64,000 nt of DNA from Verrucomicrobiota bacterium (lineage in GTDB: Bacteria; Verrucomicrobiota; Verrucomicrobiia; Opitutales; Coraliomargaritaceae): contig JBCBZJ010000015.1 in assembly GCA_039815375.1 (NCBI GenBank), positions 1-64,000 on the forward strand, written 5' to 3'. The notes beneath the pieces are model-generated. The model was given only the letters and a program-made list of their open reading frames with translations. It ran no database searches and was not told the DNA's origin. Below, in pieces: positions 50,935-52,644 of the stretch; position 1 is the stretch's first letter; the number at the start of each line of letters is the position of its first letter. The position numbers and the translations under genes were made by a program.

Positions 50935-50993
50935 TAGAAAAATAAGCTAGGAGGCTTGCCCTCAAGCCTCCGCGTCGTTTTCAATCTACCTGA

Positions 50994-52151
50994 ATGGAGC
51001 AAGGTTATCAGGTTATCGCACGCCGCTGGCGCCCGAAGCAGTTCGATGAGCTGGTAGGGCAGGACCACATTGTCCGCACGCTGCGCAATGCGATTGAAAC
51101 CAAGCGTATTGCCCATGCCTACCTGTTTGTTGGCCCGCGCGGCACGGGTAAGACCAGCACGGCCCGGCTTTTCGCCAAGGCCCTCAATGCAGAGGGTGGG
51201 CCCAGCGCCAAGCCGGATAACGAATCCGAAATCAGCAAGGCCATTATGGGTGGTTCCTGCATGGACGTGATCGAAATCGACGGTGCCTCCAACAACTCCG
51301 TCGATCAGGTCCGCGATCTGCGCGAAGACTGCCAATACGCGCCCACTCAATGCACTTATAAGATCTACATTATTGACGAAGTGCATATGCTTTCTACTGC
51401 TGCATTTAATGCGTTGCTCAAGACACTTGAAGAGCCACCCGGGCATGTGAAGTTTTTCTTTGCGACGACTGAGGCGCACAAGGTTCTACCGACCATTGTT
51501 TCTCGCTGCCAGCGCTTTGAGTTTCGTCCCATTTCGGATGCTGTTATTGCGGAGAAACTTCTTCAAATTTCTGAAGCTGAAGGTATCAAGGTCGAAGCTG
51601 AGGCACTGAAGTCCATCGCCCGCCTCGCCAATGGCGGGATGCGTGACGCGCAGTCCATTCTTGATCAAATGATTTCCTTTTGCGGGAGCGAAATCAGCGA
51701 AAGCGATGTGCTTGATGTCTACGGTCTGGTTTCTTCCGAGCGCATCGCTGAGCTCGGTAAAGCTCTGGGTTCGCTTGATTTCCCCGCTATTATTGCAGCA
51801 GTTGATGGTTTTGTCGAAGAAGGGCGGGACCTCTATCGCGTCTTGCTCGATCTTGAAGCTCATGCCCGTGGGGCTTTACTTGATGCCATTCAAAATGGTG
51901 GCTCAACAGAAAAGCTTGGCACCAGTCTAAGCACCGAGTCGATCATGCGAATGCTGGATGCACTCCATCGTGGTGAGGCATCCGTCCAGAAAGGACTTTC
52001 TGAAAAGGTTAACTTCGAGGTCGTGCTACTTAAGGCGGCCGAGGAGTCCCGCTCTCGGGCCATTGATAGTCTGATTAAACAAGTCTCTGCGGCTGCTTCG
52101 ACAGGCTCAGGACAATCCGGCGGCGGAACCGGCGAAAAAAAAAAGCCCTAG
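50994..52151 (+). CDS. dnaX: DNA polymerase III gamma/tau, zero-frame (short) product
   Basis: [50 protein letters not shown]; ends GEKKKP-stop after an A10 run. Confidence 0.96.
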
Positions 52152-52516
52152 TTCCGCCACCGCCTAAAAGCGAAGCTGCCTCCGAATTGGAGGACGATGC
52201 TTTGCAGGTTGCGGTCGAGCAAAGTGGGGTGGGTTCACCGGCACTTGGAGAGCAGCCTGTTGTCGGTGCCGAGCGAACCACCTCCGAATCAGAAGAGGAG
52301 CGCTTTGCTGCCTATGCCGAAATGGAAGCCGCGGCACCGCTTGAGGTGGCTGAAGCGTCTCCCTCACTTCAGCCGAGTGCGAAGGCTGAACCTAGTCTCA
52401 CTCTCCAAGATGCCGCCAAGTGTCTCAGCCCGAAAGTCCTTCAGGCGCTGGAGGACCAATTTAATGGCAGTCTTACCGAGGTGCGTGCACCGGACGACAA
52501 AGACCAGTTCTTCTAG
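52145..52516 (+). CDS. dnaX: Putative -1-frame C-terminal extension of DnaX (tau-specific tail)
   Basis: Frame is open from the A-run to TAG at 52516 (123 aa): Pro/Ala/Glu linker, then [20 protein letters not shown]. Confidence 0.7.

Positions 52517-52565: not shown

Positions 52566-52644
<79 letters not shown>

Follow-up and report, generated by a model that had tools for sequence, protein, structure and literature searches.

The dnaX gene in the window, that is the whole 64,000-nt stretch of DNA that was analysed, from a marine bacterium, is split between two reading frames at a run of ten adenines. The split and its A10 run are genuine and form a recoding site, conserved among relatives, in a gene that is essential. 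Plain reading of the gene gives a gamma-length protein, and comparison of the site with its orthologs suggests that slippage of RNA polymerase on the A10 run probably gives the longer tau subunit.

The zero-frame ORF (50994..52151, + strand) encodes a gamma-length protein of 385 aa with an AAA+ core, lid, collar domain III and a short linker ending EKKKP. It is identified as DnaX by matches to Pfam PF13177 and PF22608, a weak match to PF12169 and a score of 408 bits against TIGR02397 (cut-off 250), and the host genome gave no other strong match to DnaX. Its end reads GGC GAA AAA AAA AAG CCC TAG, with the A10 run at 52135..52144 (+) and the TAG stop (52149..52151, +), which ends gamma on unslipped (A10) mRNA, 4 nt past the run. 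A stop closes the -1 frame 24 codons ahead of the zero-frame stop, but from the run to a stop at 52514-52516 this frame is open and adds a tau-specific tail of 123 aa (52145..52516, +) that begins ALVPPPPK and consists of an acidic Pro/Ala-rich linker and a terminal motif, for 507 aa in total. The sequence thus bears out the run, stops and product lengths given in the first-pass annotation, which had also proposed that the long product needs recoding and that one extra A would yield it. Modelled transcripts support this proposal, as those with A11 join the tail to give 507 aa and those with A8 give 506 aa, while A7, A9, A10, A12 and A13 all give 384-391 aa. A +1-frame stop TAA (52165..52167, +) would end a gamma of 390-391 aa on A9 or A12 mRNA. 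Within the run and in zero-frame phase lies the heptamer A_AAA_AAG (52139..52145, +), a possible -1 ribosomal slip site. The gene is flanked by a 9-bp hairpin, terminator-like on both strands, at 50950..50971 between the upstream gene and dnaX, and directly downstream by a tRNA-Ala(GGC) gene (52569..52644, +) starting 52 nt past the tau stop. Runs of this kind are rare, the 3.56 Mb host genome containing two A/T runs of at least 10 in total, the dnaX A10 and a T10 behind a GC hairpin, and no run of nine or more A's was found in dnaX codons 1-345 in 202 loci (209 kb in all).

Conservation of the site was examined in the host family, meaning the family of the source genome, where 101 genomes were searched and 90 dnaX loci examined, 11 of the 101 genomes having been left out of the set (5 without a dnaX match, 5 fragmentary and G022). 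A set of 79 named loci, used solely for taxonomy, places the named relatives in Opitutales (Puniceicoccaceae, Coraliomargaritaceae and Lentimonas). Aligning related dnaX genes for a conserved run and frame break, as the first-pass annotation had proposed, revealed a run with an open -1 tail at 89 of the 90 loci, 85 with A10 and four with A9, the latter having the first A substituted and the frame the same. The sole exception (L051) has A3 at the site and its contig ends ~120 nt further on. In all 89 run-bearing loci the tail, 89-154 aa long, is open right from the run, and a variable linker leads to a conserved motif at the end (alignment A1). The heptamer A_AAA_AAG is in zero-frame phase at 72/89 loci, with an AAC ending at the other 17. 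The codons of the run are GAA/CAA, AAA, AAA, AAG/AAC in 85/89 loci and never include GAG/CAG or an inner AAG, although the same genes use GAA:GAG at 1302:1287 and AAA:AAG at 637:712, and by this comparison the synonymous sites of the run are evidently frozen. In 89/89 loci the zero frame ends no more than 8 codons past the run. The +1 frame is likewise closed within 14 codons in 89/89, compared with 65% of control positions, and within 6 codons in 79/89, compared with 40% of controls, with stop positions and stop codons that vary.

Homopolymers are error-prone, and a few loci of the order (L138, L141, L145, L150 and L151) differ in frame from their close kin, which raises the question as to whether the split could be a product of faulty assembly, or whether a continuous A11 allele undergoes phase variation at the DNA level. 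We regard both as hardly credible for the host family, where A11 occurs in none of the 89 loci. A contig of run X1, possibly the source of the DNA, spans the A10 with no difference, and a contig from a second sample (X3, depth 2.5) covers 52069-52222 gap-free with one substitution at 52127; no indel at the run was found in the DNA contigs of the two samples. The presence in 89/90 loci of the run and of an open -1 tail ending in the conserved motif argues that the split is not an assembly error, an explanation which the conserved run and the indel-free contigs largely refute. The first-pass annotation had named as counting against recoding an A11 allele, continuous relatives without the run or an extension without homology to DnaX C-termini, and none of these was found in the host family.

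The -1 tail is identified, by homology to the ends of continuous DnaX proteins, as the tau C-terminus, in agreement with the earlier suggestion that the extension resembles one. At P<=0.01 a profile built from host-family -1 tails alone matched 23/37 continuous Opitutales DnaX tails, 18/26 +1-frame ortholog tails and 6/15 continuous DnaX from other orders, compared with 2-3% of shuffles. An hhalign comparison of alignment A1 with DnaX C-termini of other orders gave E 6e-5 and a probability of 65%, and one of the other-order proteins in that set (L130) aligned to the gamma/tau model PRK14965 up to position 574/578. The homology lies in the conserved terminal motif (52391..52513, +), two helices followed by a further 11 residues; in a model of 62 residues the helices span 26-32 and 35-45 with pLDDT 85-92. 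No significant match to the tail was found in Pfam, NCBIfam or PDB sequences (three profiles) or by Foldseek (62-residue model). Each of the three profiles lines up in register with the E. coli tau tip, but at E 0.1-0.15, values that are not significant and serve as a hint only. By eye, the Opitutales tail is shorter than that of other orders and is without the extra folded domain ahead of the tip. The C-terminal part of E. coli tau is described as binding Pol III alpha and DnaB (PMC4756838, PMC11470591), and by analogy the tail may bind Pol III alpha here. The DnaE C-terminal domain of the host genome is encoded at G000:C11:47156-47509 on the minus strand. In two small-genome Opitutales (L240, G409; L242, G408) DnaX is 389-399 aa long with the motif fused almost straight to the collar, the run and linker are gone and the protein represents a minimal tau.

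The tail ORF has in-frame starts of its own, and the tail might accordingly be a separate small protein whose translation from TTG 52187 or ATG 52322 would be coupled to the gamma stop, with no fusion made. The first-pass annotation had recorded only a TTG start; TTG 52187 is indeed the first, followed by TTG 52202, but GTG 52229, ATG 52322 and later GTGs are also in frame. A locus from another order (L114) has a homologous tail ORF with its own ATG past the stop and no run. Across the host family, however, the position of the first in-frame start varies between codons 1 and 76, and 3/89 loci have no such start, which makes a separate tail gene unlikely there; an ATG precedes the motif in only 46/89 loci, the -1 frame stays open as far back as the run in 89/89 and the run itself would be left unexplained, so that a separately made tail is very improbable as the explanation of this locus. 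The L114 gene belongs to family f14, whose dnaX genes lack an A run and stop at 365-371 aa (L114, G108:C9; L113, G118:C15). In L114 the ATG of the tail ORF lies one base past the stop (TAA T ATG), possibly giving a separately translated tau tip; in L113 a search for a tail found none. A further gene from another order (L115, G258:C2:1666700-1669300) has a dnaX that is divided between the zero frame and the +1 frame within a GC-rich linker lacking an A run; this split was seen in a single genome and may be an assembly error. As L115 is split and L113 and L114 end at gamma length, all without a run, a split need not require one.

In order to place the site in a wider context we examined 181 Opitutales loci from 37 families, three duplicate loci having been removed. 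The wider sampling took in 30/61 of the family f7 matches (plus L112) and 30/32 of the one-per-family matches, with frames called by profile match and, for L230, L240 and L243, by eye. The tail lies in the -1 frame in 116 loci, in the +1 frame in 26, in the zero frame with a run in 31 and in the zero frame without a run in 6, with two unclear (L051, at a contig end, and L148, with N's in the tail); none of the counts in this study is to be read as a p-value, since kin are not independent. Run lengths were 8 A (1 locus), 9 (25), 10 (145) and 11 (3), giving at least 8 A in 174/181 and 9-11 A in 173/181. Every split-tail locus of the order has a run of 9-11 A, and within the order the run is missing only where tau is in frame. 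No run of at least 8 A was found at the equivalent place in 18 loci from other orders. Counted by family, 18 show the zero frame with a run, 12 the -1 frame, 5 the +1 frame and 6 no run, with families f4 and f7 each showing all three frame states. The +1 state is found in 8/8 genomes of genus g24 and in 14 g40 loci, and whole genera of f7 have the zero state; being common to multi-genome clades these states are not isolated assembly slips, though singletons may be errors.

The states also appear to have changed repeatedly. A FastTree phylogeny of 109 rows gave 16 frame changes among the 84 run-bearing rows, and an IQ-TREE phylogeny of 30 rows, picked after seeing the FastTree result, gave at least 6. 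On the same 30 picked rows, neither the +1 rows (p-AU 5e-94) nor the -1 rows (p-AU 0.004) form a single clade. Both non-tau frames are closed within 15 codons in 143/150 loci of the order, and among the one-per-family loci both are closed within this distance in 19/24 compared with 21% of control positions. On this evidence it is fairly likely that the slippage site goes back to the root of the Opitutales and has since been kept at 9-10 A, that the tau tail drifts among the three frames, with polarity being an interchangeable state and not a design, and that only lineages with tau in frame have lost the run. If so, tau would need one added A, one A fewer or two more, or no slip, depending on lineage, and the Opitutales would be the largest natural series of transcriptional slippage in an essential gene. 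In the zero-frame loci, mostly of f7 and close kin, the 40 nt immediately before the run are more strongly folded than shuffled sequence in 9/16 (mean z -2.3), possibly as a nascent-RNA hairpin that tunes slippage; the -1 class is without such upstream folding.

The mechanism that probably operates at this locus would begin with RNA polymerase slipping on the A10 run to produce transcripts with 11 (or 8) A's, which would join the -1 tail and encode the 507-residue tau. Transcripts with 9, 10, 12 or 13 A's would run into a stop a few codons further on and encode gamma, so that a single gene would supply both clamp-loader subunits, of about 42 and 54 kDa as estimated from their lengths. We infer both the transcriptional nature of the slippage and the ratio of the products. 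The strongest of four points for RNA polymerase slippage is the floating frame of the tail, as the same run serves -1, +1 and zero layouts, which fits a frame-blind transcriptional process and which a -1 ribosomal shift alone cannot explain. The reversed polarity at this locus would then reflect just one of the three frames, interchangeable with one another, in which the tail behind a single slippage site can lie. Opposite shift directions within one gene family are treated as a mark of transcriptional realignment by Antonov 2013 (PMC3711429), and the frame switching within Opitutales fits that description and so favours realignment here. The run also reaches the usual slippage threshold, given as nine A's in PMC1088944.

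A second route to tau would be -1 ribosomal frameshifting, acting as the main source at A_AAA_AAG with help from the overlapping A_AAA_AAA, with the +1 and zero relatives using another route. An in-phase run ending of A_AAA_AAG (86) or A_AAA_AAC (19) is present in 105/111 loci of the -1 class, and A9, the shortest run in the host family, is exactly two overlapping heptamers. Stimulatory signals are in mild excess in this class, with SD-like pairing of -6 kcal/mol or stronger in 22/111 loci compared with a background of 8%, and downstream folding at z < -2 in 15/111 compared with 3/111 control windows, the latter being a weak and not conserved excess. A 2016 review (PMC5009743) moreover names Chlorobium phaeobacteroides as a candidate for the reversed layout whose stimulators resemble those of E. 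coli. Ribosomal slippage would however need only six of the A's, and the run is held at 9-10 A, longer than the heptamer; orthologs with the same run need a +1 shift or none, and the third frame also closes early. Most -1 loci are without stimulators, neither a Shine-Dalgarno nor a hairpin stimulator of the E. coli type being conserved across the 111 -1-class loci, and at this locus SD pairing is only -5.0 kcal/mol, with two small hairpins. We therefore consider it unlikely that ribosomal frameshifting is the main source of tau, although the heptamer and the mild folding and SD excess suggest that ribosomes may add to the output of RNA polymerase slippage. The first-pass annotation had given the two slip signals equal weight; both are present, and it is the frame switching across the order and the lack of conserved stimulators that tip the balance towards transcription.

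For the host genome the result amounts to an annotation fix, since a plain gene call omits the essential tau, here and in most of the host family. What the analysis adds is a natural three-frame series within one bacterial order, which provides comparative support for transcriptional over ribosomal slippage, the mechanism of reversed dnaX being a suggestion only in PMC3711429 and described as ribosomal in PMC5009743. The series also supports the view put forward in PMC4756838 that selection favours the production of gamma as well as tau. We found no publications on Opitutales dnaX slippage or three-frame switching in a search that most subscription literature lay outside, and the terms "Opitut" and "Coraliomargarita" are absent from the main and supplement text of PMC3711429, whose screen included 4 Verrucomicrobia genomes and whose Figure S3 is a picture.

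Several further observations touch on slippage and on the replicase in these genomes. Four A9/T9 runs in the host genome lie within long stop-free frames of 242-1327 codons (G000:C9:33133, C11:289381, C24:18022 and C39:60734). In a genome of the same genus (L183/L184, G017:C4) dnaE1 is apparently in two frames near its 3' end. The host genome also carries a second DnaE (G000:C30:14869-18168, +), which we take to be an error-prone, DnaE2/ImuC-like polymerase from its C-terminal signature. The second DnaE is relevant because E. coli gamma has been linked to the access of error-prone polymerases (PMC4756838).

With respect to known systems, E. coli dnaX has the same A_AAA_AAG heptamer at the gamma/tau border, but with A6 only, a continuous tau and a conserved upstream SD and downstream hairpin, whereas the gene described here has A10, reversed polarity and stimulators that are not conserved. 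Thermus thermophilus dnaX, in which transcriptional slippage occurs at A9 (Larsen 2000 as described in PMC1088944 and PMC5009743), shares with the present site a run of at least nine A's and nearby stops in both non-tau frames (here at 52149 and 52165), and its continuous layout is shared by 31 Opitutales loci. Unslipped mRNA gives tau in Thermus and gamma here, and slippage was demonstrated there while we infer it here. A dnaX split at a poly-A tract, with slippage proposed to restore tau, has been described in Blochmannia (PMC3017870). That genome is reduced, AT-rich and has many tracts of this kind, and its dnaX indel falls past the ribosomal site, within the part that only tau contains; the run here, in contrast, is unique in its genome and marks the end of gamma. 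The closest parallel is the set of 17 two-ORF dnaX genes spread over 12 genera, each in the -1 layout and nine with A10, for which Antonov 2013 (PMC3711429) proposes transcriptional realignment, and which recurs in PMC5009743 (Atkins 2016) and PMC4066793 (Sharma 2014; GeneTack COF_239165634). As in that set, a gamma-length ORF, here of 385 aa, ends just past the shift site, a second ORF in the -1 frame encodes the tau C-terminus so that recoding is needed for tau, and a poly-A run marks the junction (7-10 A there, A10 here). The layout flagged in the first-pass annotation as the reverse of the E. coli arrangement is thus present but not novel, being the headline dnaX result of that 2013 study, to which this locus adds a member. 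Unlike those 17 genes, all of which are -1, the Opitutales orthologs show -1, +1 and zero.
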